From: Antedon mediterranea
Taxonomy: Eukaryota > Animalia > Echinodermata
Direction of reading: 5' to 3'
Length of the DNA: 64,000 nt
Assembly (NCBI RefSeq): GCF_964355755.1
Contig: NC_092675.1
Span: forward strand, 23,036,912-23,100,911
The notes beneath the pieces are model-generated. The model was given only the letters and a program-made list of their open reading frames with translations, was not told where the DNA came from and did no database searches. Position numbers and translations under genes: made by a program. Positions 14,629 through 64,000 of this stretch are shown piece after piece (within the stretch, counting starts at the first letter, position 1; each line of letters starts with the position of its first letter).

Positions 14629-14669
<41 letters not shown>

Positions 14670-39100: not shown

Positions 39101-42100
39101 AGATTCTGTGTCTGCTGTGTCAACAATTAATGTTTCTTCTTCTGTTGTTGTAGGAGTCTCTGTTTCATCTGTTTCCTCAGTTTCTTTCTCTTCGTCAATA
39201 GGTTCAATCACATCTACATCTTCCTTATCAGTCCCACCTGTTGTTACTTCTGTTTCATCACCAACCTCAGCTTCTGTTTCAGTAGTTTCTTCAGTTTCTT
39301 TTCCTGGTTCTTCAGTAGATTCTGTGTCTGCTGTGTCAACAATTAATGTTTCTTCTTCAGTAGTTGTAGGAATCTCTGTTTCATCTATTACCTCTGTTTC
39401 TTTCTCTTCGTCAATAGGCTCAATCACAACAACATCTCCCGTATCAGTCCCATCTGTTGTTACTTCTGTTTCATCACCAACGTCAGCTTCTGTTTCGGCG
39501 GTGTCTTCAGTTTCTTTTCCGGGTTCTTCAGTAGATTCTGTGTCTACTGTGTCAACAATTAATGTTTCTTCTTCAGTAGTTGTAGGAATCTCTGTTTCAT
39601 CTATTACCTCTGTTTCTTTTTCTTCGTCAGTAGGCTCAATCACAACAACATCTCCCGTATCAGTCCCATCTGTTGTTACTTCTGTTTCATCACCAACGTC
39701 AGCTTCTGTTTCGGCTGTGTCTTCAGTTTCTTTTCCGGGTTCTTCAGTAGATTCTGTGTCTGCTGTGTCAACAATTAATGTTTCTTCTTCAGTAGTTGTA
39801 GGACTCTCTGTTTCAACTCTTTCCTCTGTTTCTTTCTCTTTTTCAGTAGGCTCAATCACAACAACATCTCCCTTATCAGTCCCACCAGTTGTTACTTCTG
39901 TTTCATCATCAACCTCAGCTTCTGTTTCGGTAGTTTCTTCAGTTTCTTTTCCGGATTCTTCAGTAGATTCTGTGTCTGCTGTGTCAACAATTAATGTTTC
40001 TTCTTCAGTTGTTGTAGGACTCTCTGTTTCTTTCTCGTCGTCAGTAGGCTCAATCAGAACAATATCTCCCTTATCAGTCCCACCTGTTGTTACTTCTGTT
40101 TCATCATCAACCTCAGCTTCTGTTTCGGTTGTGTCTTCAGTTTCTTTTCCGGGTTCTTCAGTAGATTCTGTGTCAACAATTAATGTTTCTTCTTCAGTTG
40201 TTGTAGGACTCTCTGTTTCTTTCTCTTCGGCAGTGGGTTCAATCACAACAACATCTCCCTTATCTGTCCCACCTGTTTCTACTTCGGTTTCATCATCAAC
40301 CTCAACTACTGTTTCAGTTGTTTCTTCAGTTTCTTTTCCGGGTTCTTCAGTAAACTCTGTGTCTGCTGTGTCAACAATTAATGTTTTTTCTTCAGTAGTT
40401 GTAGGAATCTCTGTTTCATCTATTACCTCTGTTTCTTTCTCTTCGTCAGTAGGTTCAATCACAACAACATCTCCCTTATCTGTCCCACCTGTTGTTACTT
40501 CTATTTCATCACTAACGTCAGCTTCTGTTTCGGTTGTGTCTTCAGTTTCTTTTCCGGATTCTTTGGTAGATTCTGTGTCTGCTGTGTCAACAATTAATGT
40601 TTCTTCTTCAGTTGTTGTAGGAGTCTCTGTTTCATCTGTTTCCTCTGTTTCTTTCTCTTCCTCAGTAGGCTCAATCACAACATCTCCCGTATCAGTCCCA
40701 TCTGTTGTTACTTCAGTTTCATCACCAACGTCAGCTTCTGTTTCGGTTGTGTCTTCAGTTTTTTTTTCGGGTTCTTTGGTAGATTCTGTGTCTGCTGTGT
40801 CAACAATTAATGTTTCTTCTTCTGTTGTTGTAGGAGTCTCTGTTTCATCTGTTTCCTCAGTTTCTTTCTCTTCGTCAATAGGTTCAATCACATCTACATC
40901 TTCCTTATCAGTCCCACCTGTTGTTACTTCTGTTTCATCATCAACCTCAGCTTCTGTTTCGGTAGTTTCTTCAGTTTCTTTTCCTGGTTCTTCAGTAGAT
41001 TCTGTGTCTACTGTGTCAACAATTAATGTTTCTTCTTCAGTAGTTGTAGGAATCTCTGTTTCATCTATTACCTCTGTTTCTTTCTCTTCGTCAATAGGCT
41101 CAATCACAACAACATCTCCCGTATCAGTCCCATCTGTTGTTACTTCTGTTTCATCACCAACGTCAGCTTCTGTTTCGGCGGTGTCTTCAGTTTCTTTTCC
41201 GGGTTCTTCAGTAGATTCTGTGTCTACTGTGTCAACAATTAATGTTTCTTCTTCAGTAGTTGTAGGAATCTCTGTTTCATCTATTACCTCTGTTTCTTTT
41301 TCTTCGTCAGTAGGCTCAATCACAACAACATCTCCCGTATCAGTCCCATCTGTTGTTACTTCTGTTTCATCACCAACGTCAGCTTCTGTTTCGGCTGTGT
41401 CTTCAGTTTCTTTTCCGGGTTCTTCAGTAGATTCTGTGTCTGCTGTGTCAACAATTAATGTTTCTTCTTCAGTAGTTGTAGGACTCTCTGTTTCAACTCT
41501 TTCCTCTGTTTCTTTCTCTTTTTCAGTAGGCTCAATCACAACAACATCTCCCTTATCAGTCCCACCAGTTGTTACTTCTGTTTCATCATCAACCTTAGCT
41601 TCTGTTTCGGTAGTTTCTTCAGTTTCTTTTCCGGGTTCTTCAGTAGATTCTGTGTCTGCTGTGTCAACAATTAATGTTTCTTCTTCAGTTGTTGTAGGAC
41701 TCTCTGTTTCTTTCTCGTCGTCAGTAGGCTCAATCAGAACAATATCTCCCTTATCAGTCCCACCTGTTGTTACTTCTGTTTCATCATCAACCTCAGCTTC
41801 TGTTTCGGTTGTGTCTTCAGTTTCTTTTCCGGGTTCTTCAGTAGATTCTGTGTCAACAATTAATGTTTCTTCTTCAGTTGTTGTAGGACTCTCTGTTTCT
41901 TTCTCTTCGGCAGTGGGCTCAATCACAACAACATCTCCCTTATCTGTCCCACCTGTTTCTACTTCGGTTTCATCATCAACCTCAACTACTGTTTCAGTTG
42001 TTTCTTCAGTTTCTTTTCCGGGTTCTTCAGTAAACTCTGTGTCTGCTGTGTCAACAATTAATGTTTTTTCTTTAGTAGTTGTAGGACTCTCTTTTTCATC

Positions 42101-45100
42101 TGTTTCCTCTGTTTCATCTGTTTTCTCCGTTTTTTTCTCTTCGTCAGTAGGTTCAATCACAACAACGTCTCCCTTATCAGTCCCACCTGTTGTTACTTCT
42201 GTTTCATCATCAACCTCAGCTTCTTTCTCAGTAGTTTCTTCAGTTTCTTTTCCGGGTTCTTCAGTAGATTCTGTGTCTACTGTGTCAACAATTAATGTTT
42301 CTTCTTCAGTAGTTGTAGGAATCTCTGTTTCATCTATTACCTCTGTTTCTTTCTCTTCGTCAGTAGGCTCAATCACAACAACATCTCCCGTATCAGTCCC
42401 ATCTGTTGTTACTTCTGTTTCATCACCAACGTCAGCGTCTGTTTCGGCGGTGTCTTCAGTTTCTTTTCCGGGTTCTTCAGTAGATTCTGTGTCTACTGTG
42501 TCAACAATTAATGTTTCTTCTTCAGTAGTTGTAGGAATCTCTGTTTCATCTATTACCTCTGTTTCTTTTTCTTCGTCAGTAGGCTCAATCACAACAACAT
42601 CTCCCGTATCAGTCCCATCTGTTGTTACTTCTGTTTCATCACCAACGTCAGCTTCTGTTTCGGCTGTGTCTTCAGTTTCTTTTCCGGGTTCTTCAGTAGA
42701 TTCTGTGTCTGCTGTGTCAACAATTAATGTTTCTTCTTCAGTAGTTGTAGGACTCTCTGTTTCAACTCTTTCCTCTGTTTCTTTCTCTTTTTCAGTAGGC
42801 TCAATCACAACAACATCTCCCTTATCAGTCCCACCAGTTGTTACTTCTGTTTCATCATCAACCTCAGCTTCTGTTTCGGTAGTTTCTTCAGTTTCTTTTC
42901 CGGGTTCTTCAGTAGATTCTGTGTCTGCTGTGTCAACAATTAATGTTTCTTCTTCAGTTGTTGTAGGACTCTCTGTTTCTTTCTCGTCGTCAGTAGGCTC
43001 AATCAGAACAATATCTCCCTTATCAGTCCCACCTGTTGTTACTTCTGTTTCATCATCAACCTCAGCTTCTGTTTCGGTTGTGTCTTCAGTTTCTTTTCCG
43101 GGTTCTTCAGTAGATTCTGTGTCAACAATTAATGTTTCTTCTTCAGTTGTTGTAGGACTCTCTGTTTCTTTCTCTTCGGCAGTGGGCTCAATCACAACAA
43201 CATCTCCCTTATCTGTCCCACCTGTTTCTACTTCGGTTTCATCATCAACCTCAACTACTGTTTCAGTTGTTTCTTCAGTTTCTTTTCCGGGTTCTTCAGT
43301 AAACTCTGTGTCTGCTGTGTCAACAATTAATGTTTTTTCTTCAGTAGTTGTAGGAATCTCTGTTTCATCTGTTTTCTCCGTTTCTTTCTCTTCGTCAGTA
43401 GGTTCAATCACAACAACATCTCCCTTATCAGTCCCACCTGTTGTTACTTCTGTTTCATCATCAACCTCAGCTTCTGTCTCAGTAGTTTCTTCAGTTTCTT
43501 TTCCGGGTTCTTCAGTAGATCCTGTGTCTGCTGTGTCAACCGTTAATGTTTCTTCTTCAGTAGTTGTAGGACTCTCTGTTTCATCTGTTTTCTCTCTTTC
43601 TTTCTCTTCGTCAGTAGGCTCAATCACATCTACATCTCCCGTATCAGTCCCATCTGTTGTTACTTCTGTTTCATCATCAACCTCAACTACTGTTTCAGTA
43701 GTTTCTTCACTTTCTTTTCCGGGTTCTTCAGTAGATTCTGTGTCTACTGAGTCAACAATTAATGTTTCTTCTTCAGTAGTTGTAGGAGTCTCTGTTATAT
43801 CTGTTTCCTCTGTTTCTTTCTCTTCATCAGTAGGTTCAACAACATCTCCAGTATCTGTCCCATCTGTTGTTAATTCTGGTTCTTCACCAACGTCAGCTTC
43901 TGTTTTGGTTGTGTCTTCAGTTTCTTTTCCGGGCTCTTCAGTAGATTCTTCGTCAGTGGGCTCAATCACAACAACATCTCTCTCATCAGTCCCACCTGTT
44001 GTAACTTCTGTTTCATCATCAACCTCAAGTACTGTTTCAGTAGTTTCTTCAGTTTCTTTTCCGGGTTCTTCAGTAGATTCTGTGTCTGCTGTTTCAACAA
44101 TTAATGTTTCTTCTTCAGTAGTTGTAGGACTCTCTGTTTCATCTGTTTCCTCTGTTTCTTTATCTTCGTCTGTAGGCTCAATCACAGCCACATCTCCCTC
44201 ATCAGTCCCACCTGTTGTTACTTCTGTTTCATCATCAACCTCAACTACTGTTTCAGTTGTTTCTTCAGTTTCTTTTCCGGGTTCTTCAGTAGATTCTGTG
44301 TCTGCTGTGTCAACAATTATTGTTTCTTCTTCAGTAGTTGTAGGAATCTCTGTTTCATCTATTACCTCTGTTTCTTTCTCTTCGTCAGTAGGATCAATCG
44401 CAACAACATCTCCCTTATCTGACCCACCTGTTGTTATTTCTGGTTCTTCACCAACCTCAGCTTCTGTTTTGGTTATTTCTTTTCCCGGATCTTCAGTAGT
44501 TTCCGTGTTTACTGTGTCATCCTTAGCTTCTGTTGGTTCAACCTCGATAACATTTTTATTTTCAGTAACATCCTCAGGGACAGCTTCAGTTGTAACCGTA
44601 CATTCTTCAGGTAATGGTAGCGTAGGATCTGGTATTTAATAGAGTTGCATATTGTTTATACATTGTTATATCGTGTATTTTATGGAATTTAATTTTAACA
44701 ACGTATTATTAACTTGAAATTTGAATGAATGATATTATTCTAACGGCTTTGATAAAGTCCCTTTTTAAAATGTTAATGATATAGAAAGGATTAAGACCTT
44801 GTTTGAAAGACAGAGAAAATATTTCTTTTTTTATAGGCTACAACACCCCTGATTGAATCATTGAATTAGATAATCTTGTAATTTTATTCCAGCTGGGCCA
44901 TTTTTAAATGTTTTATCGAATAATGACTGATCTCCTGAAAATACTAATTTATTTTTTTAAACTGTTTTTGTCACATAAAATATATTCACTTTTGTCAAAA
45001 AGTAGATCGAGAAACAGTTTTAAATTTTACAGTATTTAGAATATACTAACCAAATTCGCACAGTATCTTTATGTGTCTTTCACATGGTATTGCAAACCAC

Positions 45101-48100
45101 TGTCCTAAACGAACTTTCATTGCGGCACATAGGTTTCCTCTTTGTGGTTCTCCATCCTTCCACGCTGAAAATAATTTAAAATTATATAACTAATTAACTA
45201 AATATATTGAGTGAATGTAGTTTAATGTATATCTATGTATATATGATAAAGTATATGAATAGTAGTTGTGGAATGTGTTATTGTCTAAACATAAGAAATA
45301 TGTCACATCACCCACAATCTAAGGAACAACTCAATATCTCATGATTATGTAAAGGAACATGCTTTGTTTAGTGCAATACCTTCAAACCGTGATGTCTCAT
45401 CAGTTGGAATCCAACGATATCCATCAACCTGTGAAATGTAACGGTAGCCTATCCAGATAAGCTTGGTTTTGTAACCATCGTCAATAAGTCTTTCTTGCAG
45501 AAAGTCGTTTTCTTCTTGAGACGATATGACAACAGGTCTGGCATTGCACATTTCCTCGTTACATCGTGCGGCAATGCCCTCAAACGGATTTGCGTTTGCC
45601 ACAAAGTAACAATTCTTTCCATAACTGTAGGTTTGAGCCGGACATTCTGTGAAATAAATAATATGCGATAAATAATGTTTCAATATCTAATGTTCCCATG
45701 TTGTTGTCTAATATTTAAATGTGTATTTTTTATTTCGACAGGGTTAGCAAATATACATTGCTCCGATATCCTGTCATTATATGTATGCGAAACATCTTAT
45801 TATATAGCTATACTTTAAGAAAATGCACATCCAATACCGTAAATCCCGTTTAATATATTAGGGAGCTTTTGCATCGGGACGGTAAATGAAGGGGATGGTA
45901 ATTAACAGAGCGTAACGATTTTTTTCGACACAAGCGCTGACGTCATCCTTCTTGGTGAGTTTATGCGTCTTTGGTTAGAAAAGTTTATTTAGTCATTTTT
46001 GTCATTACCAAAATTGCAGCTTGACAAGGGAATAAGATATCTGAATCCTTTGATTTTCCGACGACAACATTACAATGATTAATTAAAAATGTCTTACCTA
46101 TCATAGGTTCTGCCGTCCTTTTCGCTATTCTATGGTTAACCTATGTAATATAAATATATACAATGATAGATATTTTCAATTTAAATCAACTTGAAACAGT
46201 GTTTCAATATCGAATATCCGTCGATATTCGTACGATAACAAGCTCAATTTATAGAACCTAACTCTTAAAGAAAGTTAACCTACTCTAACCTAAATACTTA
46301 ATAATATTAATTGAGTAAAATGGCCGAGTGGTTAAGACAGAAACGCCGTTTACCATACATCAGTTCGAGGCCGACTACCTCCTAGTTCTGGTGGTGGAAC
46401 AAGTCTTCTCAGATATGGAATATAAGCCGTAGGTCCAATGTACACAATTTGCCCTTTGCCTTTAACGAAAATCATTCGTTCCCGGTGAACTGGTTTACAA
46501 AATATCCTCTTGGTCAGTGAGATTGTCACCAATCGGATAGGACAGTGATTGATTTACTAACACTAATTAATCAGTGGAGCTGCTGATTGGCAGAAAATCG
46601 TCGACATAAACTTTCTGAAAATGAGATTATTGTATTTGTCGTGTGATTATACTGCATAATTTTCGTCGTCGCTAAACAAGATACCGATCTGGTGAAACAG
46701 TCTGGTATGTTCTTTTTAAAATTATAACTAGTATTTATTATGAAACATGAACAAACCAGGCTTAGTTTCTCTGAAAAATTGCTAAGAAAACATGTCATGG
46801 ACAACAGTATAATAAAATTGGTAAAATAGTCAAAGTAAAGCAAGAAAAAAAAAATTATAGTCATGCAGACAGTTTCATGTTATAAGAAGGTTTTAAGGAC
46901 GTACATGTGTATTGCAAAGTGGTAGATCGGTTTGCCGTTTTGTATTTTTACACTATTACACATTGCTGTATTTATAATACTCATGTGCTACTCACAATTT
47001 GATATTGTAAAATTAACATATTAATTAACGGAAACATTTTAGGCATGAGGAAATAAAGCTATTAACCTCGTTCTAAAATGCAATGGTGTTCTTTATATTA
47101 TGATTATGAACTCGCTCTAAATTGATTAGGATACCGTGGCATGCTATGGACTGCTGTATTGAATTGAAATGATGGACCTGTTTCAATCGTAATCAATCAT
47201 TTCCACATGCAAAAATTGACCGTTTGAACATTAATTTAAAACCGTATTATCATACTGGTTCACTACCAAATTGATGCATGCATTTTCGGTATGTTGAAGT
47301 TATTATAATCTATACAGTAATTTGTATTTAGCTTGTACAGTTTTATAAAGCCAGCCTAATGTTTATGGACGTTTTCAGAAAACACAAGTAATAAAAAAAA
47401 AAAACAATAGGCCTACAGGCGTATAGACAGTAATATTAATAATATTAAAAATAATGGAATCAGTCTTTAATATTATAAAACAACCCAATAAATAAAGTCA
47501 TGTTAGAACATATAAACATATAAGCGCGTAACAATTTCGAAAGGCATTGTGGGATAGAATAGAGCTATGGGTGGTGCCATTGTGAGCCATGGAGTAGGGC
47601 GCCCGCATCAAATTAGAAAGTCAAAATCATAGAGGGGATCTGCTAATGCTCTAGGGGGGATAGAGTAATTGACTGAGGAGTAGGGCGCCCGCATCAAATT
47701 AGAAAGTCAAAATAATTGAGGGGATCTGCTAATACTCTAGGGGGTAGAGTAATTGACTACCTAGTTTGGAGGGGGAGCTGCTCCATGCTGTGAAATGGCG
47801 TCGCCCAGTTTGACCTTTTAACCCTGTACTTCCGATACTGTGTTTTGAATGCAAATTGAAGAACAGGAGATTCTTGTGTTATAAGTTCTTTGATATAAGT
47901 AATAATCAAATGAACCGCTAAACATTCTGAATTGTGTATTAATGTACGTTACGTGAGCCGCTGTTTTAATACATCTGTGTTATGTCACTATAAACTTCCT
48001 TCCAGCTTAACAGCTGAACTGATTCAGTGGTTATATCAATGAACTTTCGAATTGAGATAATTATCGTAAAAGTTCGTCATGCAATGCAAGATATTAAATA

Positions 48101-51100
48101 GTCTATTAAAAAGGATAAATGTAACAAGTTGTTTCATTATAATTTAACTATTATATTTAGTCATGACAAACTGGTGTACCATTATATCGATAATTATGAC
48201 GATCCACTTGGAAATGTAATTATCAAATGTGTATTCGCTCAAAGGGGAAGAAAAATCGTGAAGTGCCTATATTGTGTGACGGTGATATGAAATTTATAAA
48301 CTAAAGCTCTGTCTACACTATCAAACTTTAAGACAAATAATGTGATGTGCCTATGGACATGATGATGTCATATCACTACCGTATTTAGGCATATCACACT
48401 TTTTTGTCAAACTAGAAATTGATAATGATGCCATATTATAATTATCATGATTTAGGCCTAAAATAAATTTATATAAATTAATCTATTAAAATGTTTTACG
48501 ATGAACCAATATAATTTTATTTTGTTTGTTTGATAGATGCTGTTTTTTTTAAATTGGAGATGAACATCTTTAAATACGGTAGCCAATTTTCTGGTTCAAT
48601 TTAAAAAAATGGCTGTATATGTATTGTGTATTAGACACCTAAAGAACAATCCATTTTGAAATGAAATTTAATTATCAAATGTGTACTCGCTCAAAGGAGG
48701 AAGAAAAACAAAGTACCTATCTCATTTGATGATATGAAACGTATTTGTGAAACTTAGATGTCAGAAATTGATTGTGATGCCATCCATTTTTATGTCATTA
48801 CAATTTAGGCCTAATCACAAAAAGTAAGACCAGAAACAAGATGACTTTACAAAACAATTTTTACTCGATCGTTAACTACATTAAGAGTATCTGAGGACAG
48901 GATGACTTTTAAATTTGTCTTAAATGTACCGTGTCTGAACATTAGCCTGGTCAAGCGACCGACTATAACCGAATTACGGAAGAACTGTCACAGTAAGTTT
49001 TAAAATATTTTTACAAATTAGTTTGTGAACGGCCATTGCACTATTTTTATATCCGTCGACAAATACAATATGATAGAAAGAGAAGCGTGTAAAGGTTGCG
49101 CCATCTACAGTACGGTCGACTTCGCTTTATGAATTTTAACCAGATTTCAAAGCAATCGACTGCGGTGCGGTGCTCCGTTTGGAGAGATATTTTAAAAGGA
49201 CAAATACCCACTCAATTAACGTGAGCTGAAAGAACACAGGGGTTCGTTTTTCTAGTGGCTGATCTGGATAGGCGCGAATGCTGACGGCTGTGAGTCCGCA
49301 GATTAAATTGCCTCAGTTACAAGTTATGCTGGGGGACGATAATAAAACATACCTATACTCGATAACCAAACGGGAAGGGTAAGCCCAAAATGGTGTTTCA
49401 GATTCTAAAGCTGTTGTTTATATTGGATAAATAATCTTGTTATAGGCGATTTATTTTCATCGCTATAAAACATTGATTTATTTTGTTTTGTACCGCTATA
49501 GTGCCGCTATAGCTAAATAATTTCTAGTAGGCAGTGTTGAGTATGGTTGATAGAGCTAACCTAACACTTTTTAAAAAATAGAAGCGTACTTAGCTGTGGC
49601 TCCATGAAAAATAATTTATTGCGACTATTTTCCAACGCGACATATTTTATCCCGTCACCAATCTTTATATTAGGTCGGTGGTATACCAGTATAAATTGAA
49701 AGTATTTAAACTGAGTGACGTAATAATTAATTTGTAAATATGCCTTTCTAATTTGTATCATCATCATCATTGGCAAGATCCAGGGGCGGATGAATTGAGT
49801 TCATTGGTGGTATGTGATAATAATAATATAATATCCTGGATTTATATAGCGCCTAATGTTGTGAAACCTCTAAGCGCTGAATAATATTACCCCAGTCAAT
49901 TTTTTGATCAAACATACTCCCATAATGCAGCTAGTATTCAGCGCAAAGTGGGATTCGAACCTCGATCTCTCGATCAGTAATCCAACGTCCGGACACACTT
50001 TGCGCCACACGCCCTAACTGGCGACGGCAAGAAAGCCTCCTTCCCACAAGTTAACATCTGCCCTAAAAATATGTAAATAGTAATATACCTCGAGGCTACA
50101 TTATAGTACTGTGACTACACTACTTTCACAATACAAAAATTTGAATTAATGTAGGCCTCATAATTAGAAATATTTAAAGTAAATTAATAAAAGAACAAAA
50201 AAAAATCCATTTCATTCAATTATTAAACAGAAAGATCTGATTTATAAGGAAATTTGATGTAAGCTTTAGTACAGTAACAGTCAACATAAGAGAACATAAA
50301 ACATTTTGTTCAATAACATATACTGCAAGTCGTTGCTAATTGCAATCCCTTTTGGGTTAAAACAAGTGCATTCTTTAAAAGATATCGCAGACATCATTTA
50401 TGTAAACGAAAGTAGACCTGTCAATATCAGTATGAATGATGTAACTGTAACACGTTTTCAAGTTCCTAATTTTGGTTTTTCTCCATTTTTTTTATGATAT
50501 TATATAATTATTTATCAGCCTACAAAATACAAGGCTAGCTAATTTTAAAAATGGACAATAAATCTTTATACAAAGTATAGGCTATACATCTAATTTAGAA
50601 GTATTACCAGAGTTAACACAGTTCTATAAAGATGTATTGTCTTATATAAAATGAAAAATAAAGATTAATAAAATCAGACTTTGAAGATGTTTGTAGTTAC
50701 TTCCGATGGGGAAAATGACAAAATAAATGGTTAAGTTCAACTAAAAAACCTATTGGCTGGCAGCCAATTTGACAATGTTTTGCTTTAAATTACAGTTTTT
50801 TAGGTAAATACATTTTCTTTTTCAAAGTGGATAACTATTATATGTCTATTACTACTATTATATTAAACTAACAACTTTTTTTTAAGGGGGACAATACATC
50901 TTTAAAATATGAACTAAATGTGTTGACAATTAACCAATACAATTGTATTTTTTGTTTTATAAATGCATTTTTTTTTTCAAAATTAGCAATGAACATCTTC
51001 TAATAGCCAAATTTCCGGTTCAGTTAAAAAACTGTAAAAATGTATCTTTATTAAAATCTTAATACATACTTGAATTATTATCAAATCAATACACATAATA

Positions 51101-51321
51101 CGTATTTTATTAATCTCACAGCTACGATTAAACTAGAAATTAGCATTGTTAATGTAAGATATATATATATATATTTTATAAATGTCCAATCTAATTTTTT
51201 TTAATGGCCATATTTAATAAATCACGGTTCTGAAAAAAAAGTATTACTATAAACTTACCAGCTTGACTGCCTGTACAGTTGTCAACATGCACAACACAAT
51301 AATGGTATGTAGGTCTCTCAT
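30176..51321 (-). CDS. Giant secreted C-type-lectin / acidic-repeat / C-terminal cystine-knot protein (~4,480 aa); exons 51321-51259, 46140-46098, 45646-45380, 45164-45051, 44628-36103, 35941-35681, 34878-31495, 31353-31096, 30872-30708, 30549-30176
   Basis: Signal peptide MRDLHTIIVLCMLTTVQA. Three split CTL domains (CPxxxxxYxxxCY..., WIGY/WIGL, W.DGEP...C...G.W...C......C). Two E/T/D-rich repeat exons. The last exon has CTGCCPS...C.P...C...CSC (CTCK pattern). All ten exons join with GT-AG sites and matching phases into 13,455 nt with no internal stop found. Confidence 0.8.
32230..34600 (-). repeat. Coding 204-bp (68-aa) tandem repeat, acidic block 2
   Basis: VVTEPTDDEKDTEEAVQTESPEAIEKETVTDE... 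units. The shadow + strand ORFs recur every 204 bp (33135, 33339, 33543, 33747, ...). Confidence 0.95.
36700..44480 (-). repeat. Coding ~65-75-aa tandem repeat, acidic block 1, with higher-order duplications (1680 bp and ~1269 bp)
   Basis: VVIEPTDEEKETE...PTTTEEETLIVDTADTESTEEPGKETEETTETEAEVDDETEVTTGGTDKGD units. The 60-nt line at 39001 is identical to that at 40681, and sequence at 41392 recurs at 42661. Confidence 0.95.
46313..46445 (+). mobile_element. tRNA-derived SINE with Nin/Deu-like core; paralogous copy at 62467-62570
   Basis: A box tggccgagtggttaag and B-box-like gttcgaggcc, then gtcttctcagata...tataagccgtaggtcc, which resembles the GGATxAGAC.TAAACCG.AGGTCC Nin/Deu core. It sits at the same position upstream of exon 2 in both lectin paralogs. 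Confidence 0.6.
47525..47892 (-). mobile_element. Second copy of the 32-bp-TIR MITE, one TIR deleted
   Basis: Near-identical reverse complement of 26243-26610. ATATAAG flanks both sides (47518-47524, 47893-47899). Confidence 0.85.
48302..48415. mobile_element. Truncated hairpin MITE
   Basis: taaagctctgtctacactatcaaac terminus and an internal inverted repeat gacaaataatgtgatgtgcct / aggcatatcacactttttgtc. It is absent from the degenerate duplicate at ~48655-48815. Confidence 0.55.
49817..50015 (-). mobile_element. Internally deleted tRNA-derived SINE
   Basis: Minus-strand head gggcgtgtggcgcaaag...gaggttcgaatcccac (A and B boxes) and tail cagcgcttagagg...ggcgctatataaatccaggatattatattattattat, shared with 10030-10082. 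Confidence 0.6.
50630..50901. mobile_element. MITE with agatgtattgtc TIRs in an (A/T)TAA context (Kolobok-like, tentative); degenerate relatives at ~20230-20490 and ~21830-21910
   Basis: taaagatgtattgtc ... gacaatacatcttta. The internal ttgctttaaattaca..tttt.aggtaaa motif is shared with 21868-21900. Confidence 0.55.
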
Positions 51322-51412
51322 TCTGAAAGATGCGTAACCTGGTCGAGTACGACCGTCCCAACCAAACCGATGATTGTGGGTTAAACAGAACACCAATGTA
51401 TAAGTAACTAGT

Positions 51413-51419
51413 TTTTATA
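51413..51419 (-). promoter_or_regulatory. Candidate TATA box of the giant lectin gene
   Basis: TATAAAA on the minus strand about 90 nt upstream of the signal-peptide ATG at 51321. The AT-rich context lowers specificity. Confidence 0.4.
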
Positions 51420-51681
51420 ATTTTGAATTTCCTTTCTAAATTTTAAATTACTTCACAGGGGGCGCACTTCGTGTAATAGTAAAAAATAATTGTTCTCGGA
51501 TACAGTCACAAAAATTAATCAAAAGAGAAATGGAAATCAACAATGACACACTAATAATAATTATAGCTAGGCTAGCAAATGACTAATTCCTACCTACTAA
51601 AGCTGGCCTATATTACATTATACGAATGTGGCAAACAATAATAGGTTACTTTGGAAAATGTCAATTCAGCTCTTATGCAAA

Positions 51682-51750
51682 CATGGCTGCAGTCGCGTGC
51701 GCAAATTTGAGTTAGTGTTTACCGACCGACCGACATAGTGAACTATAGAT
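51682..51750 (-). mobile_element. Partial HINE/DINE-1-like copy
   Basis: catggctgcagtcgcgtg...ttagtgtttaccgaccgaccgacatagtgaactata, the reverse of the family's core. Confidence 0.65.
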
Positions 51751-54700
51751 AACAATACACCCTTGTCTGCTTCTTTTTACACACCTGGATAATGTCACCT
51801 GTAACAACGATATAACGGTCGAACAGAATGCATTATTCAAACCTCAATTTGTTTTTCTGTATTCTTTAAATCAAAGCAGAGCACCAATTATATGTTATAT
51901 AAACTATATATAGACCTAAACAAAGGTTTTATCATGTGATTCTGTTTGCAATAATGTAAAGTGAATATTATATTTTAATATAGGTACCCGAACACCACGA
52001 AAGAAAAAGAAACAGTATAACGGTATATGTTGTATTTATTTACATTTATATTGTAAAAAGTTCGTTCATAGAAAGAATGGTACAATGACAAAAATCTACA
52101 GGAAACAACCACTTCATCAAACAATAACATGAGAAAAAAGACTAAGAACAATTTGTTCACCATGGAGTCAGATCAAAATAGTCTTGTAGTGATGAATTCT
52201 ACTGTAAAATAAAAGAAAGTATCACTTTTATAAGACACGATAGTTGTTCTGTTTTGTATTAGCAAATTAAAATCTTGATCAAACGACAGCGGGAAGCAAA
52301 AGGTACTTACATTTCTACTTGATGATGATTGTTGATTTATATCACATTGATAAAATCTACCCGTGCGCCGTGATATCTTTATAAAGATTTGTACTAAATA
52401 TGATTCGGGCAAACTTTTTTTCGAAGGGATATTAGTAGGCCTATACAACGGAAAGATTGTATATAAAAATTACAGCAACTTTTAGTGTCCATCATAGAAA
52501 TCAGAATCAGCCTAAGAATAAAATTCTCCTAGGGAAGATTGTGGGTCAATTAATAAACGAACACATTACTTTCCAACGTTTAGTTTTTAAAATAAACCAG
52601 ATCAAATAATGAGCAGTTTGGCTTTCCGTGGCTTGTACATCTTAATTTATTAGAACTTTTCAGAAATAAAAAGTTAGTTACTCCTTGGTTCACTATTGGC
52701 ATTCAAAACTATCTTCTCTATTGGGATTGTACACATAAGGCATCGGAAGTCAAAATGCCAATAATGGCATAAAATAAAAGTACTTGGCATTCGAAGAATA
52801 TTAAACAAATAAGTTTTTTTATATACAACTAAATAAAATGAATACAAATTATGACCTTCAACAACTTAATAGCGAATATGTCAGCGTGATACAACATCCT
52901 TCAGCCGTCTATTTACATTCACGAAATAAATATGAGACATTTAACACAAATATTAATAATAATGATGATTGAAGATGTGATCTATTTTGTAAATTTAATT
53001 GTATTGACTAAACATAATGTACACACATTTCTAAAACATTATTACTTGTCCTTAATATGTAGATTTCTTGGCTTTGAGATATGGGATTGTGGCTTTTTCG
53101 GTAAGGGGGGGGGGGTGCACTTTGTGGTTTTTAATCAAGGTTGTGGTGAGAGTTATTAGTTTGTTTTTCCAGAAGAGTATTCCTATAAACTAGAGAATCG
53201 CGTTGCTACGACTAAAGAGATAAAAAAAAAGTCCGATGGCCAATGACGTCACAATTCAAGAACATTTAATAAAGAGAGTGTTACGAAAAAAGCTTTTATA
53301 TAAAATAATAAAAGATATCTCAGAAATGTATAGATACGTGTTCATTTTGATATTCGTGATATATGCAGCTGTAGCTATCAGGTATTTGTCGTGTATCATT
53401 CCAAAATTTAGCAGATTAATGTTATAGTTCCGTTATTAGTAGAGCATGCAAACTCGCCACTTGTGCACTGCCATCTCAAACTGACCTCTAATTGACACAT
53501 CGACCTACAGCCATCAGTTCAAGGATTGGCTAGAAATTGTGCTGACATTGCAGAAGGACAAGCACAAGATATTTAATTGTGGCACGAATTGCGTGCAGCT
53601 ACTAGACTATTGCATAAAATAAACAGATGACAGGGCATGCGCAGGATTGGGGAGTATCATTTTATAATTTCGTGTAATATTCATTAAATAGATATATTCG
53701 CACAATTACGCGAATAATCATTCAAGGACTGGCTAGCAAATGTGCTGAAATTGCAGAACGACACAAGCACATAAACGATGGTATTGTAGCACTAATAAAA
53801 TGCAGCTTATATTGAGAATCACATCATTCCGCATTGCGTGTAAACTTCAAGATAAATTTTGTCTTCGCATTCTAAATCAATAGTGTATGTCGAATAGTCA
53901 TGTGCGATGAATGTCAAAATGTGAGAAAAAAAACGCTACGGACACGTTGTACAAAATAATTGTAATTTAAGTATTTTATAGTTTTGTTTACTCATGTGCA
54001 GTGGTGGTTCCAGGATTTGCCCGACGGGGTTGGGGGTGGTAATGTGCGCTTAGCATCCATTTGGTGGGGACGCCAAGTGGGTTGGCTGAGCCCCGGAATC
54101 TCCCACAATATTAAACATTTAAATTTAGTTGCTTTTAAAGATGAAATCCTTGATTGGGCACAGCAGGGTATTTTTATCAAGGAATATGAATATTTTTCGG
54201 CCGAAACATGGTCAATCACCCGGTCCTTCTTTTTCCGGAAATCCAGATCATTTCATAGTTTATTGTGTGAACTCGGTAGAATTCATATAACTTCAGCATG
54301 CACTTTAATTATTTGAAATGTTCACGATTTTGAATTTGTTACTATTTTCATACCTTACAGTTAGTAGTCTGCTATCACTAAAATTTAAATGGAATATTGA
54401 TTCATTGGCAAAAGAATCAATTGTTGGATCTATTTAGTTTCTTTTTATATATCTCCACTATGATGGGGAACATTATCTGTGACTGTGATATTTCATTCAA
54501 TGCATTGGGCGAAATACAATTTTATCCCAAAGTGACACACATTGCCAACATTTTCTTCCCCCCCCCCCCACAATCTTTCAAACGTATACGTAAATTAATC
54601 AAGATGCCTGTCAAAGTGCTGTCAGCAGAGTTATTTTCTTGTCTTCTTGCACCAGCTTGGTTCCCCGAAACGCAACAATGACAATTTGGCCAATCACAAT

Positions 54701-55116: not shown

Positions 55117-55287
55117 ACTTGCACTGATTAAGGGCTATTGTTGCCCGAAAGATCTGCAAATTTGTCTGGCTGTTTCACTTATCGTTTTCATTTAGCTTTT
55201 TGCTTATTTTATATTTTATCTCCATTGGGATCCAGCCACTGATACCCACATCATTGTCATTTTTCAGTAATTTGCCTTTGAATTTAT
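55117..55287 (+). mobile_element. Diverged copy of the hammerhead-bearing element
   Basis: TTGCA-CTGATTA-A-GGGC..GCCC-GAAAGATC-TGCAA followed by the family body. The core carries a G8>U change. Confidence 0.75.
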
Positions 55288-56259
55288 AAATAAATTACAT
55301 AAAAAGACCAAGATGTCAAGGCTTATTATGTTCAAATCCGGTAAACAACATTTACGTATAACGGTAAGTTCATTACTACATTACTCTAGATCATTATACC
55401 AGTGTTGTGTGTGAATATTTGATTTTATTATTAACTGTTGTATAGATTCAATGCAATATTTGTGTTATACATTTGTGGTAGTGGTATGGATTTACAAATG
55501 TCATTAATGACGGTGAAAATATAATTTTCGTTTGATTCAAAAGTTGAAAACGGTTCAAATTATGTAATTTGGGTAAGATAATTGTTTACATTAGAAATAA
55601 TACCGCTTTCAGAAAGTGAAATTATATCAATGTTAATGCAAACGTTTATATTTTAAAATTTACATGTAGAGAAATACCCTTTCAATATAGTGAATCATCA
55701 TTGAGGAACAGCGTTATTTCCTTGAAGACATCTTATAGCGGGAATACAAATAGCTTGTGTTTAATTCAATTCTGTTACGCCAATTTCCTATTAAATATAG
55801 CAGAAAATATGACTGTTAAAAAGTTACTACTTACACACGGATGCATAATATTACAGCTGTCTGATAGAATTACATTTAACAACATACACTATATGTTTAG
55901 TAAGACATAATAGATAATATCCTCCTAAAACATCCTTTATCATAACACCTAAAATACTTGTATGTATTGTCGAGTGCAATTCGAGATCTAACATTGTATT
56001 TCATGTTTTAAAAATACATTTACATGATAATTACACATTAGCAATTATTCAATTTATTCAAAGATGTGATCCTGTAATATAAGATACAATGTTGAAAAAA
56101 CGACAAAGATAGTTAATATTATTATTTTAAGTGTAAAATCGATCGCATACTTTGGTAATCGCACTCGTGGATAACATTCTATATTTTTCTCCTTTTTTCA
56201 TCTTACCATTTATTGATCTTCTGTGGTTTACCTATATAACTATGCTTTCGGTAATCCTT

Positions 56260-57564: not shown

Positions 57565-57776
57565 AGCACTTGCCAGTTCTTATACTATGACGTTATCCAA
57601 ATTCCTTCACCTGCACCGATGAAGGGCTAGTGTTGCCCGAAAGCTCTGCTAACTTTTCTGGCTGTTTTACTTTATCGTTTTGATTTAGCTTTTCGCTTTT
57701 TTTTTGTATCTCCATTGAGATCCAGCCACTGATACCCACAGCATTGTCATTGTTTTCACTAATTTGCCTTTGGATT

Positions 57777-57818
<42 letters not shown>

Positions 57819-58160
57819 CCAAAGGCAAATTAGTGAAAAAAATGACAATGCTGTGGGTATCAGTTCGAACAATACCATGAAAGCCCCAGTGGTCTAATGG
57901 TTAGGACATCTGCATATCAAGCAGGCGGTCCGAGTTCGAGTCTCGGTTGGGGCGACTTTTTCTCATTCTCACAGATTTCCTCATCTTTATCGTTTCAAAT
58001 TAATTAATTAAATTTCAGTATATCACCGGGCGGTTTAGCATTAATGTTCTTTGCCTCTTGTGTTTATATATATATATATATATATAAAGAAAATTTAGCA
58101 GAGCTTTCGGGCAACACTAGCCCTTCATCATATGTATATATATATACACATATATATATG
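57565..58160. mobile_element. Nested (TA)n hotspot: hammerhead element (+), inverted tail (-), tRNA(ATC) element (+), hammerhead fragment (-)
   Basis: 57565-57779 hammerhead family (core CCGATGA), (TA)n, 57813-57863 inverted copy of its 3' end, 57864-58066 tRNA-containing element, (TA)n, then 58095-58130 reverse hammerhead. Confidence 0.8.
57883..57954 (+). mobile_element. tRNA-like moiety (ATC anticodon) inside a repeated element; probably not a functional tRNA
   Basis: GCCCCAG/TTGGGGC acceptor stem, perfect T arm ccgag-TTCGAGT-ctcgg and anticodon arm tctgc-atATCaa-gcagg. Diverged copies at 61042-61113 (-), 61402-61469 (-) and ~63946-64000. Confidence 0.7.
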
Positions 58161-58744
58161 ATTTATATATATTGATTTGTTTGTTGCAATTTTAATGTCA
58201 CAAAATAGTTATTGATTTTGACCAAAAATTGGATCGCAAAAAATTATCGACTTGATAAAACAGCAATTTAAAACAATCAAAATTTCAAATTGTTTTTTGT
58301 TAATTTTTACGGTTTGTTTTTATTTGAAAGCCCTAGTGGTATGTGTAATTATAAAACAATACATTCCTAATTTCTTTACATTCACAGTTTATGTTATAAT
58401 AGTTGTATTGTATAGGCCTATATTATCATCATGATAGCTACATACTTGTAAATATATATATTTTGTTTCATTTAATATACTTAAATTGTTTTATTTATTG
58501 TAAAATGAGGTTGTCAGATATGGCGCTTGTCATACTGACTCTTTGTCAAAAGTCTGTGATCACATTGCTTAATGTTAGAACTAGCATGCTATCAGAATAA
58601 AATAATACATTAAGTAAAATAATATTTAAACGAATACTACACCCGGTAGGTAACGAAACACAATAATGTTCACAAATTAAACTACGAATAGTCCTATCAT
58701 GCTACATATATATCATAATAGACTAAAACGTATTCTAGCCATAT

Positions 58745-61700
58745 TCATTCAGCACCTGTTGTTACTTCTGTTTCTGTTTCTTCATCAACTTTAGCTTCTG
58801 TTTGGGTTGTTTCTTCAGTTTCTTTTCCTGGATCGTCATTAGTTTCTGCGTCTGCTGTGTCAACCGTTAATGTTTCTTCTTCAGTAGTTGTAGGACTCTC
58901 TGTTTCATCTGTTTCCTCTTTGTCTTTGTCTTCATCCGTAGGCTCAATCACAACATCTCCCGTATCTGTCCAACCTGTTTCTTCACCAAAATCAGCTTCT
59001 ATTTCGGTTTTTTCTTCAGTTTCTTTTCCAGGATCGTCAGTAGTTTCTCTGTCAACCGTTAATGTTTCTTTGTCTTTCTCTTCATCAGTAGGCTCAATCA
59101 CAACATCTCCCGTATCTGTCACACCTGTTGTTACCTCTGATTCTGTTTCTTCACCAACCTCAGCTTCTCTTTCGGTTGTTTTTTCAGTTTCTCTTCCAGG
59201 ATCGTCAGTAGTTTCTGTGTCTGCTGTGTCAACCGTTAATGTTTCTCCTTCAGTAGTTGTAAGACTCTCTGTTTCATCTGTTTCCTCTTTGTCTTTCTCT
59301 TCATCCGTAGGCTCAATCACAACATCTCCCGTATCTGTCCCACCTGTTTCTTCACCAACATCAGCTTCTATTTTGGTTGTTTCTTCAGTTTCTTTTCCAG
59401 GATTGTCAGTAGTTTCTCTGTCAACCGTTAAAGTTTTTTTGTCTTTCTCTTCATCAGTAGGATCAATCCCAACATCTCCCGTATCTGTCCCACCTGTTGT
59501 TACCTCTGTTTCGGTTTCTTCACCAACATCAGCTTCTATTTCGGTTGTTTCTTCAGTTTCTTTTCCAGGATCGTCAGTAGTTTCTGTGTCAACCGTTAAT
59601 GTTTCTTTGTCTTTCTCTTCATCAGTAGGCTCAATCACAACATCTCCCGTATCTGTCCCGCCTGTTGTTACCTCTGTTTCTGTTTCTTCACCAACATCAG
59701 CTTCTATTTTGGTTGTTTTTTCAGTTTCTTTTCCAGGATCGTCAGTAGTTTCTGTGTCAACCGTTAATGTTTCTTTGTCTTTCTCTTCATCAGTAGGCTC
59801 AATCACAACATCTCCCGTATCTGTCCCACCTGTTGTTACCTCTGTTTCTGTTTCTTCACCAACATCAGCTTCTATTTCGGTTGTTTTTTCAGTTTCTCTT
59901 CCAGGATCGTCAGTAGTTTCTGTGTCTACTGTGTCATCCGTTAATGTTTCTCCTTCAGTAGTTGAAAGAATGTCTGTTTCATCTGTTTCCTCTTTGTCTT
60001 TCTCTTCATCAGTAGGCTCAATCACAACAACATCTCCATTATCTGTCCCATCTGTTGATACTTCTGTTTCTGTTTCTTCACCAACCTCAGCTTCTCTTTC
60101 GGTTGTGTCTTCAGTTTCTTTTCCAGGATTGTCAGTAGTTTCTGTGTCTACTGTGTCAACCGTTGTTTCTTCTTCCGTAGTTTCATCTTTGTCTTCTTCA
60201 GTAACATCCTCAGGGACAACTTCAGCTGTACATTCTCTAGGTAATGGTATCGTAGGATCTAGTATTTAATAGAGTTACATATTGTTTATACATTGCTTTA
60301 TCTTGTATTTATGAAATTGAATTTTAACAACGTATTATTAACTTTAAATTTAATCAATGAAGGATACTGTTTTTAACAACTTTGACAAAATTCCTTTTTA
60401 AAATGTTAATGATGTAGGAAGGATTAAAACCTTGTTTGAAAGACAGAGTGAATATTCCTTTTTCATAGGCTACAACATGAATCAATACATTAAATGCTCT
60501 TGTAATTGTATTATAGCTGAGCCATATTTCAAATATTGTATTTTCGAATAATGAATGCTTTCCTGAAAATACTAATCTTATTTTTAAACTGTTTGTTGAA
60601 TAATTGTTTTATTATGTCATAAAATGTATTCACGTTTGTCAAAAGTAGATCTAAAGTGTACAACGTACAGCATTTAGAATATACTAACCAAATTCGCACA
60701 GTATCTGTATGTGCCTTTCACATGGTATTGCAAACCACTGTCCTAAATTAACTTTCATTGCGGCACATAGGTCTCCTCTTTGTGGTTCTCCATTTGTCCA
60801 CGCTGAAAGTAATGTAAAATTATATATATAGGCAAATTACTGAAAAATGACAATGCTGTGGGAATCAGTGACTGGATCTCAATAGAGATACAAAAAAAAA
60901 GCGAAAAGTTAAATCAAAACGATAAAGTAAAACAGCCTGAAAAGTTAGCAGAGCTTTTGGGCAACCGCCCGGTGATGTACTGAAATGTAATTAATTAATT
61001 TGAAACGATAAGATGAGGAAATCTGTGACAATGAGAAAAATCACCCCAACCGAGACTCGAACCCAGACCTTCTGCTTGATATGCAGCTGTCCTAACCATT
61101 AGACCACTGTGGCTTTCATAGTATTGTTCAAACTCGATTGGATAGCGACTATTTAACATTCTCGGCGTGGTACGATGGAAGAGCACTAGTCCCTCAATTG
61201 TACGCACGCGCACCAGAGATCATATTGAAACGCCCTCATCTTTCAGTATTTTATTCATGAGGCGGGATCTCAGAGGAGAGACACTTTTATATACATAAAC
61301 ATCACAGGCAAAGAATAAATTCTGAAATACTGAAATTTAAGTAATTATTTAAAACGATAACGATGGAAAAGGATGAGGAAATCTATGAGAATGAGAACCC
61401 CCGCCCCAACCGAGAACCCGGAACCTCCTGCTTGATATGCAGATGTCCTAACCATTAGACCACGTGGGCTTTCATGGTAATCTCGATTGGATAGCGACTC
61501 TTTAAAATTCTCGGCGTGGTATGGCGGAACAGCAATAGTCCCAAGAGTCTCTATCCAATCGAGTTTGAACAATACCATGAAAGCCTTTTGAGTATTAGTT
61601 GTGGAATGCGTTATTGTCACCTCACCCACAATCTAAGGAACAACTCAATGTCATAATTATATAAAGGAACATGCTTTGTTTAGTGCAATACCTTCAAATC

Positions 61701-62322
61701 GTGATGTCTCTTCAGTTGGAATCCAACGATATTCATCAACCTGTGAAATGTAACGGTAGCCTATCCAGATAAGCTTCGTTCTGTAACCATCGTCAATAAG
61801 TCTTTCTTGCAAAAAGTCGTTTTCATCTTGAGACGATATGACAACAGGCCTGGCATTGCATCTTTCCTCGTTACATTGTGCGGCAATGCCCTCAAACGGA
61901 TTTGCGTTTGCCACAAAGAAACAATTATTTCCATAACTGTAGGTTTGAGCCGGACATTCTGTGAAATTAATAACACAAATAATGTTTCAATATCTAATAA
62001 TGTTCCCATGTTATTGTCTAATATAAATGTGTATTTTTTTTTTATCACGACAGGGTTAGCAAATATAAATTGCTCCGATACTCTTTAATGTCTTTAATGG
62101 AGGAAAGTGCTTAGGTTAGGAAAGTTTATTTCGCCGTTTTTGTCATTACCAAAAAGGCAGCTTCACAAGGAAATAAGATATCTTGCTATGTTACCATGAT
62201 TATAATGGTAGCTGCATGAAGATGTGGATTGATTTGAGTTCAGCCCGACGACAAAAATACAATGATAAAAATGTCTTACCTATCATAGATTCTGGCGTCC
62301 TTTTCTCTATTCTATAGTTAAC
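58745..62322 (-). CDS. Truncated tandem paralog of the giant lectin gene (exons 62322-62280, 61958-61692, 60802-60689, 60258-58745): CTL plus ~500-aa acidic repeat
   Basis: Exons and introns are collinear with 46140-44628 and have identical exon lengths (43/267/114 nt), intact splice sites and an open frame. The repeat exon stops abruptly (VTTGAE*) where homology ends. It may be functional or a young pseudogene. Confidence 0.7.
60831..61585 (-). mobile_element. Composite insertion in paralog intron: two tRNA(ATC) elements, one fused to the hammerhead-element tail, one with an inverted 5' segment
   Basis: Absent from the matching intron of the full gene (45165-45379). The junction gggcaac|cgcccggtgat is at ~60966. 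Inverted arms at 61469-61503 / 61543-61585. Confidence 0.75.
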
Positions 62323-63050
62323 CTATATAATATAAATATATACACAGTAATAGATATTTAATCACCTTGAAACAGCAATGTAATGTAACAAGCTCAATTA
62401 TAGCACCTAACTCTTAAAGAAAGTTAAGCTACTCTATAACCTAAATACTCTTTTCCTATATTAAGTGAGTCAAGTGGCCGAGCGGTTAAGGCAGGATCAC
62501 CGTTTTACCATGCATCGATTCGAGGCCGTCTAGCTCCTAGTTCTGGTGGTGGAGGAACAAGTCTTCAGATAATAGTGGGGAACCTAATGTTCCAAATATC
62601 AATTCCGTGAGATTTTAATGCTCAAGTTGAGTTCTTGGCAGTTTTGGAATCCTTAAGACTAGTAGAATTCATTGCAACTAGGGGCCAATTTTCCCGACCT
62701 AATTTGGCCGCCATCTTGGATTTCAAAATGGCCACCATTATTTAAAACTGATAGTAGCTCCTATTTTAAACCTCGTACGAAAGTGACAAATCTTACAAGA
62801 TTATGATAAATCAGTCCAATGGTACAATTTATATATTAGTGGGGAACCTAATGTTTCAAATATCAACTTCATGAGATTTTAATTTTTTTTATTAATATAA
62901 TTATTATAATAATAATATAATATTATTACAATCATATATAATTCTCAAAATTTACTGACAATGCAATACAAATAATATGTCAAACAACAATAACAATTAT
63001 TTTAACAATATTTATCTAAAGTTTAACTTCAAAGACGAATAAAAACATAC

Positions 63051-63158
63051 CCTAAGTCCAATGATGTATTTACCAGGAATTGGTTTCTTGGCTTTGCGTA
63101 ATGGTGCTAGGGTAGCACTGGCGACAACCACCAACAAGAGAAGACAAAATACACGCAT
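63051..63158 (-). CDS. Captured first coding exon of a proteinase K/aqualysin-like S8 serine protease (signal peptide plus start of I9 propeptide)
   Basis: MRVFCLLLLVVVASATLAPLRKAKKPIPGKYIIGLR followed by a phase-0 donor AGG|gtatgt, with acceptor ttgttctag| at 63166. LAPL....PIPGxYIVxL is the typical I9 prodomain start. No further protease exons are in the window. Confidence 0.7.
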
Positions 63159-63456
63159 GATGTAGTCTAGAACAAAACGAACATTTAAACAAAATTGGTA
63201 CAAATTACAATGTTATTTGTAAATTACACATTTTATATTATTCAAAAATCAATAAACATTAAACCTAAACTGGACTATGAATAATATTGACTGAAATGAC
63301 GACATCAATAAATACCTAGTATAGATGTCAATAAGATGATCAATCAAATCAACAAAACAATATGCAATGAACTTAAAACTTAAAACTTGAAATTAGGTAT
63401 GTCTAAATTAATACTATTACGAAAGAACCAATAACTGATCCTGTTGTTTGGCCTAC

Positions 63457-63522
63457 CTGATCAAATCTTGTCCTATAATGTGATTGAGAATGATGGTCCG
63501 ACGAGCTGCTGTCCTTTAAATA
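63457..63522 (-). promoter_or_regulatory. TATA box, initiator and short 5'UTR exon of the captured protease fragment
   Basis: TATTTAAAG at 63522-63514, Inr-like TCATTC with its A at 63491 (31 nt downstream) and donor CAG|gtaggc at 63457/63456. Confidence 0.6.
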
Positions 63523-64000
63523 CTTCATTCTGTCCAGAGGCGTGGTAATCAATGGTACAATTTATAATAATAGCATATGGCAGCCATATTTTGATGATTA
63601 AATACATAAATGCATACATTATATACGTTTTTATTGGCGGCCATCTTGGAATTTAATGTGGTTGCCATATGCTATTTTTATAAATTGTAGCGTTGGACTA
63701 ATTTATCATAATATAGTAAGATTTGTCACACACATTACGTTCGTACGTGGTTTAAAATAGGAGCTATACTATCAGTTTTGAGTAAAAAATAGGGGCCATT
63801 TTGAAATCCAAGATGGCGGCCAAAGTAGGGATGGGAAAAATAGTCCCCAGTTGCAATGAATTATACTAGTCCTAAGGATTCCAAAACTGCCAAGAACTCA
63901 ACTTGAGCATTAAAATGTCATGGAATTACATTAGGTTCCCCACTATTAGGAAAAATCTGCATATCAAGCAAACTGTTCCGGTTTCGAATTTCGATTTTGG

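Follow-up and report, generated by a model that had tools for sequence, protein, structure and literature searches.

Introduction

Pack-TIRs, DNA transposons whose terminal inverted repeats (TIRs) enclose part of a host gene, are among the closest described systems to the locus reported here; for animals, 370 cases are on record from 100 genomes, and 30% or more of them are transcribed as chimeras (Tan et al. 2021, PMC8277862). In the part of that report available to us, the chimeras are mostly fusions of untranslated regions (UTRs) or introns, and near-whole-gene cases also occur (PMC8277862). The present locus lies in a stretch of 64,000 nt from Antedon mediterranea (NCBI RefSeq assembly GCF_964355755.1, NC_092675.1, positions 23,036,912 to 23,100,911), here called the window and numbered from its first letter. 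In it, a transposon with the front exon of a protease gene occupies the place of the missing first exon of a lectin gene duplicate. This is a real, transposon-made, in-frame join of protease and lectin sequence in a crinoid, and a young coding chimera. The reading preferred here, with a probability of about 0.5, is that a transposon carrying a signal-peptide exon of the S8 type was joined to the lectin duplicate by way of an element end, that hybrid RNA is likely to be made, and that the protein would be non-functional or weakly constrained. Literature on this locus was sought by title or abstract start, and none was found.

The protease-lectin join and its annotated product

The exons of the hybrid are as follows.

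63051..63166, minus strand: exon with an ATG at 63158, 36 codons and a phase-0 donor; signal-peptide-like, followed by the start of an S8 pro-region
62280..62322, minus strand: exon 2 of the lectin duplicate, with a phase-0 acceptor
61692..61958, minus strand: exon 3 of the lectin duplicate, the C-type lectin domain's first half (Pfam Lectin_C, E 6e-5)
61453..61550, minus strand: exon of the NCBI model derived from a short interspersed element (SINE), 98 nt; shifts the frame and overlaps a tRNA-like Rfam match at 61402-61469
60689..60802, minus strand: exon 4 of the lectin duplicate, second half of the domain; here, 66 nt short of the donor, the 187-aa form meets its early stop
58745..60258, minus strand: repeat exon of 504 codons, rich in Thr (25%), Glu (24%) and Asp (15%), ending just past the 3' breakpoint of the duplicate

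Joined as 63158-63051, 62322-62280, 61958-61692, 60802-60689 and 60258-58745, the exons have GT-AG edges throughout and give a frame of 681 amino acids (aa) with no internal stop, which bears out the initial annotation in its proposal of a phase-0 join and an uninterrupted frame. The first coding exon of the parent lectin gene (52163-52044, 120 nt) is likewise of phase 0. The join is already present in NCBI: XP_071954209.1 (P0001), an 'uncharacterized protein' of Antedon mediterranea with 187 aa and the sole member of its cluster, matches exactly the translation of 63158-63051, 62322-62280, 61958-61692, 61550-61453 and then 60802 to the stop. The SINE-derived exon of this model, which sits in an intron segment absent from the parent, had been overlooked before. 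P0001 covers positions 3-64 of 107 of the Lectin_C profile, i.e. half a domain, and has no Peptidase_S8 domain; exon 3 alone covers positions 3-62 of 107, and the form in which exon 3 is followed by exon 4 retains the later cysteines, as in the parent. The earlier proposal of a chimeric gene is thus upheld for the phase-0 join, which the NCBI model contains, and not for the 681-aa product, the only annotated form being that of 187 aa. A weak search among 103 candidates of 71-2000 aa found neither the 681-aa form nor another protein with this N-terminus.

The NCBI model takes a frame-shifting SINE exon in preference to the 681-aa frame, so RNA alignments are more likely to be its source than ab initio scoring, and on the strength of this model the hybrid locus is quite probably transcribed. 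Nonsense-mediated decay follows a 50-55-nt rule known from mammals; the stop of the 187-aa form would meet it if the last intron is spliced, and this form is a likely decay target. The hybrid protein is probably non-functional or weakly constrained. The joints 63457>63166 and 63051>62322 were not among the best 15 of 148 joints, which is not evidence on expression.

No native lectin exon 1 was found within 62323-64000. Among nine ATG frames of at least 20 codons in this interval, the most hydrophobic stretch is that of the protease exon, and the runner-up begins upstream of the predicted start site.

The SINE-derived exon belongs to a family of tRNA-headed, SINE-like repeats with copies at 60819-61585, 57565-58170, 55084-55295, 29240-29483 and 12286-12514, which is very deep in every run examined. 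Two of the SINE-like copies are located in intron 3 of the duplicate only.

The captured gene piece and its origin

Upstream of the lectin exons, the element carries a piece with the layout of a gene start.

62884..63549, minus strand: captured gene piece with a promoter-like stretch, UTR exon, intron, coding exon and part of the next intron; no second copy in the window
63487..63522, minus strand: TATA-like and initiator (Inr)-like words, a promoter predicted from sequence only
63457..63491, minus strand: predicted 5'UTR exon, with a GT donor at 63456 and no upstream ATG

The spacing between the two consensus words of the predicted promoter, from the start of the TATA-like one at 63522 to the Inr-like A at 63491, is 31 nt; such words are frequent in AT-rich DNA. 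The part of the insert at 62884-62940 is AT-rich and is not shown in sibling copies.

The 36 residues of the coding exon, compared with 1.84 billion representatives, yielded four matches at E 0.001 or better, of which P0001 ranked first and another (P0003) is an aqualysin-1-like protein of Anneissia japonica with a Peptidase_S8 domain. Among 122 stored proteins the best was P0005, an aqualysin-1-like paralog of P0003 from the same species, with 26 of 36 residues identical and a score of 135 (200 shuffles gave no more than 49); taken alone, residues 17-36 scored 76, against at most 40 in 500 shuffles. The N-terminus of P0003 shares 22 of the first 36 residues, and P0005 also has a Peptidase_S8 domain. 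Because the match to P0005 beats all shuffles, including for the part after the signal peptide, the exon is, by sequence comparison, the start of an aqualysin/proteinase-K-like S8 gene, as initially proposed. The Pfam I9 match in P0005 begins only at residue 57, and of the pro-region the exon can therefore contain no more than a stub. With the 36 residues alone Pfam gave no match and a PDB search 0 matches; an Atlas search returned first an I9 cluster at 0.81, which is a lead only. The Peptidase_S8 catalytic domain is absent from P0001 and from the downstream lectin exons.

A search for public runs listed nine from three studies, none of them as RNA, and contigs from such runs were surveyed; only contigs were used, and their depth does not give copy number. 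X1 and X2 are one sample, possibly the source of the assembly, X5 is called RNA by guess only, and X6 comes from a related organism (B). Among the matches listed, an element-free, single-copy contig of 975-1,387 bp, present in 4 of 4 runs, matches 63048-63183 alone, with 87-88% identity. Its listed differences from the window give His21 and Glu25, as in P0005, and it is likely to represent an intact S8 gene, either the donor or a paralog of the donor. The upstream part of this contig gave no alignment at 80%, and among the contigs listed only the coding exon was matched; a donor gene with matching introns was not found among them. The N-terminus was in none of the four S8 proteins of Antedon mediterranea among 120 listed. 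The view that the element delivered both a promoter and an exon of a protease gene accordingly holds for the exon; a protease origin of the promoter and 5'UTR exon was not borne out, the single-copy relative matching the coding exon only. At 63474 all listed contigs in four runs differ from the window letter, as do all listed contigs in X2 at 63444; these differences, in the predicted UTR exon and intron, are possibly assembly errors or unlisted alleles.

The element and its sibling copies

The element and its immediate surroundings consist of the following parts.

62572..63946, no strand assigned: composite non-autonomous TIR element of 1,375 bp (the empty form would be 642 bp), arms 83% alike, with TA at 62570-71 and 63947-48
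62572..62833, no strand assigned: right arm, which meets lectin intron 1 at a TA
63550..63946, no strand assigned: left arm and palindromic centre (63550-63695)
62817..62833, minus strand: 17-bp repeat, copy 2, element-internal sequence
63550..63566, minus strand: 17-bp repeat, copy 1
62836..62883, no strand assigned: third (inner) element end, followed by TA; 48 bp, 43/48 identical to the outer right end
63947..63996, plus strand: left flank, a piece of a SINE of tRNA origin that breaks off at TA, aligning to the SINE at 57860-57990

Comparison of the window with itself aligned 62570-62833 with 63679-63948 at 83% identity (233/280, E 7e-81), and both copies of the 17-bp repeat were located with 716 bp between them, in agreement with the long-TIR element and its direct-repeat-bounded insert of the initial annotation. 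The 666-716 bp between two like arms fits the Pack-TIR criterion of 100-5,000 bp of internal sequence (Tan et al. 2021). No transposase was found within the element, and the element arm gave 0 matches in one metagenome scan. Two features had been missed: the 17-mer belongs to a palindrome at the centre of the element itself (63550-63695), and a third short copy of the element end is present at 62833-62883. The 17-mer was rejected as a proven target duplication. The junction between this inner end and the insert is spanned by an X1 contig covering 62807-62970 with two differences. The terminal word TAGTGGGG is common to all three ends and can be read with either a TA or a 3-bp target. In the consulted part of the literature the target is TA for Tc1/mariner elements and 3 bp for Academ (PMC5199201).

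The contigs show that the non-autonomous TIR element belongs to a multicopy family, of which both empty and loaded members exist; its left part carries the protease piece at no fewer than three loci. The empty form is evident from a contig joint (62816>63550) found in X1 and, in 4 of 4 runs, from loose ends that lead into the right arm; together with at least three insert-bearing copies, this answers positively the earlier suggestion to look for empty elements and other loaded copies. Pieces of the window-type insert with 0 differences are listed only in X1 and X2, and the listed insert pieces diverge from the window by about 3-6%. One sibling has a 313-bp deletion and lacks 63147-63459 and thus the ATG; it is present in all six runs examined, and the deletion joint was seen in 4 of 4 runs in each of two surveys. 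A form of the insert without about 47 bp of intron 1 occurs in 4 of 4 runs, X1 also has an insertion variant, and one non-window contig per run (4 of 4 runs) has lost the GT donor. The three joints of the second survey are all genomic deletions in DNA-like runs. Among the contigs listed, the sibling copies continue into the left arm and diverge from the window near 62941-62960, one of them for 79 unlike letters. At 10 places within 63654-63825 of the left arm nearly all family contigs differ from the window (best 40 of 246 rows).

The 313-bp skip was also considered as a splice and rejected: its ends are not GT-AG on either strand, and it is found in DNA-like runs.

In X5 and X9, the two smallest runs, the insert is covered only by the copy with the 313-bp deletion, including element sequence upstream of the TATA word. 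The deletion-bearing sibling in these runs may lie inside another transcript.

Flanks and route of joining

On the lectin side, homology to the parent intron ends at 62571, and a TA stands at the corresponding position of the parent, 46414-46415. The left flank, in a finding new to this analysis, is SINE sequence without a match to the parent intron; its alignment to the SINE at 57860-57990, itself an Rfam tRNA match (E 7e-11), scored 51, against a best of 45 and a mean of 34 in 40 shuffles. Another X1 contig has the same left arm and flank, with 15 differences in 240 letters. A single unit inserted into one locus would show that locus on both sides; here TA is present on both sides, with the lectin intron at the right and a SINE at the left. 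Since a single cut-and-paste event would leave one locus on both sides, two loci have been joined at or within the element. The simple jump of one loaded element that had first been envisaged is contradicted by two flanks from different targets and by the third element end, and a rearrangement mediated by element ends is likely the better fit.

In the proposed course of events, intron 1 of the lectin duplicate would first have received one copy of the element. Into that copy, by one-ended (alternative) transposition, a loaded copy would then have inserted with its short inner end, an event that would have removed the lectin's own promoter and exon 1. Transcription would start in the captured piece, and the donor at 63051 would splice to 62322, as the NCBI model suggests. 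Skipping of the SINE exon is predicted to give the 681-aa secreted protein with lectin domain and acidic repeats, and its inclusion the 187-aa form, which stops early, contains half a domain and is a likely target of decay.

The lectin duplicate and the weighing of readings

The source of the duplicate lies in the same window.

30176..52163, minus strand: parent gene with a signal-like exon (52163-52044), lectin exons, a 2,800-codon acidic exon, further lectin domains and an acidic exon, and a weak DAN/cystine-knot match

The parent apparently encodes a very large secreted protein, with at least three C-type lectin domains between Thr/Glu/Asp repeat exons of ~2,800 and ~1,100 codons; its exons downstream of 35680 were only partly modelled, and no annotated parent of 1,564-4,977 aa was found among 29 candidates. 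Beyond the acidic exon the gene continues with at least two more lectin domains and the weak DAN match. Since the parent goes on with more lectin exons, the duplicate is a single module, truncated on either side; its 3' truncation had not been recognised before, and its stop falls a few letters beyond the point where repeat homology ends. In X5, a contig of lectin exon 3 is parent-type and apparently spliced, and a window-type intron piece (62051-62295) is present in this second sample with 1 difference in 245. Organism B (X6) has one parent-like lectin contig and no window-type one among those listed, which is a hole and not proof of absence.

Over the shared exons the duplicate and the parent differ at 25 of 424 nt, with a dN/dS (ratio of nonsynonymous to synonymous substitution rates) of 0.72. 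Eighteen sites could be polarised with X6, of which 16 fall on the branch of the duplicate, 10 of these being amino-acid-changing and 6 silent (no difference from neutral, P 0.09); the remaining 7 of the 25 had no row among the listed rows.

Several observations weigh against a weakly constrained product of an end-mediated join. The 424 nt of exon contain 0 indels, against 90 substitutions in 756 letters (11.9%) and 24 gap blocks in three intron stretches. A 681-codon frame with its splice sites would stay open in the absence of selection with a chance of 0.3-21% at 2-5% divergence, indels ignored, an estimate weakened by concerted evolution of the repeats. The frame of the duplicate has thus probably been under selection for some time, as a hybrid or before the fusion. 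As to the route, no contig among the listed pieces spans the element, the junction at 62571 is unbridged and the order of events is inferred only; ectopic recombination between two element copies would give the same flanks.

If selection keeps the hybrid, the locus would be a functional new gene: the protease promoter would drive a secreted acidic matrix protein of 681 aa that is C-type-lectin-like, and the SINE form would be a minor isoform. We regard this as unlikely. The intact splice sites and the 681-codon frame, open and without exon indels, would be improbable without selection; sibling copies have lost the ATG or the donor and the window copy keeps both; and echinoderm skeletal matrix proteins are built from a lectin domain and acidic repeats, as far as described in the consulted part of PMC4336488. 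Against it stand the sole annotated product of 187 aa, alone in its cluster, the weak candidate search above, the near-neutral dN/dS and the shortness of the protease exon, whose 36 codons alone would stay open by chance in 46-67% of cases at 3-6% divergence. The lectin introns, moreover, are about twice as diverged (about 12%) as the insert copies (3-6%), so a first exon of its own may have served the duplicate until the fusion took place; the frame may predate the hybrid, and its intactness is then no proof that the hybrid works. A fuller version is likewise improbable: one module of a giant matrix gene with lectin and acidic repeats would have received, through a DNA transposon, the secretion signal and the promoter of a protease of digestive type, and one feather-star lineage would have gained a selected, secreted 681-aa protein expressed in a new domain, with the SINE exon acting as an on/off splice switch.

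A different route would begin with an ordinary loaded Pack-TIR, complete with both arms, in a SINE elsewhere, which would have recombined ectopically, inside its right arm, with another element copy located in the lectin intron. It would account for the differing flanks, for arms that are 83% identical and for the left flank shared with another contig, and would make the 17-bp repeat a true capture scar; the listed sibling contigs, however, leave the window at about 62941-62960 and none was seen to reach the inner end, a weak point against a route that we consider quite unlikely.

Decidedly unlikely is a silent pseudogene: the duplicate, truncated at its 5' end, would be dead, the element would merely lie upstream of it, and the join in NCBI would be a prediction that took over the closest exon with an ATG. 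Near-neutral substitutions, decaying siblings and a promoter that is a consensus match only are what it would predict, but the preference of the NCBI model for a frame-shifting SINE exon would be an unlikely ab initio choice, and the frame is intact and free of indels. That two loci were mis-joined through the element arms during assembly is scarcely credible: the junction lies within two high-copy repeats and 62571 is unbridged among the listed contigs, but the join coincides exactly with an element end and with a TA that the parent also has, window-type contigs occur on both sides in X1/X2, the 62051-62295 piece recurs in X5 and the NCBI model crosses the join.

If a first exon with its signal peptide was swapped in frame between unrelated genes, the locus would offer a clean, testable case of exon shuffling caught early, with the parent, decayed siblings and a relative seemingly possessing the parent-type gene alone all at hand for study. 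If it is merely a transcribed relic, it is a modest example of the raw material of gene birth.

Other features of the window

On the opposite strand (plus), 13448-17224 holds a Thr/Ser-rich, mucin-like frame of 1,258 codons with 159- and 201-bp repeats. Exons at 22201-28180 (plus strand) may be CABLES-like, in line with no more than a weak Cyclin_N match (E 0.005). A broken reverse-transcriptase remnant lies at 6686-7518 (plus strand; RVT_1 E 6e-4, under the curated cut-off). A 372-bp dispersed repeat at 26242-26613 and 47522-47893, 99% alike, in opposite orientation and with an internal 86-bp tandem pair, is likely to be a recent mobile element. Rfam microRNA matches were rejected, all being hairpins under the gathering score.

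Comparison with described systems

The predicted 681-aa form resembles the echinoderm skeletal matrix proteins, as described in the consulted part of PMC4336488, in being secreted and in combining a lectin domain with an acidic repetitive region; the repeats of the skeletal proteins are Pro/Gln-rich, whereas those found here are Thr/Glu/Asp-rich and far longer (PMC4336488). In its first 36 residues the hybrid is like the echinoderm aqualysin-1-like S8 proteases (P0005, P0003); unlike them it has no catalytic domain. No literature on the shuffling of signal peptides by DNA transposons was found within the partial coverage of the search.

The inferred route has its counterpart in the alternative (reversed-ends) transposition by which Ac elements of maize gave rise to p1/p2 chimeras and tandem duplications, in which element ends bring together coding and regulatory sequence from two loci and the duplication breakpoints lie at element ends (PMC1592236, PMC3744419, in the parts consulted). 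The maize events concern linked paralogs and a hAT element with 8-bp target-site duplications (TSDs) and were caught experimentally (PMC1592236, PMC3744419), whereas here the genes are unrelated, the target is apparently of the TA type and the route is deduced from the sequence.

Among the animal Pack-TIRs of the accessible part of PMC8277862, Drosophila Ssk-FB4 is similar in that a multicopy TIR element with the 5' region, exons and introns of a host gene is fused to neighbouring sequence. Each copy of Ssk-FB4 has a matched TSD, whereas the present element has two different target flanks and a third end (PMC8277862). The filter of Tan et al. calls for a unique parental locus of at least 90% identity that has no element next to it (PMC8277862); no such locus was found here, the only element-free match among those listed being at 87-88%. 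In contrast to the Pack-TIR chimeras described there, the present one is an in-frame coding fusion of two unrelated genes (PMC8277862); the list of 370 cases may itself hold an in-frame coding example. The locus works like a Pack-TIR chimera, fails the test of a single insertion and comes without an identified parent, and is therefore a variant of this class and not a plain member of it.

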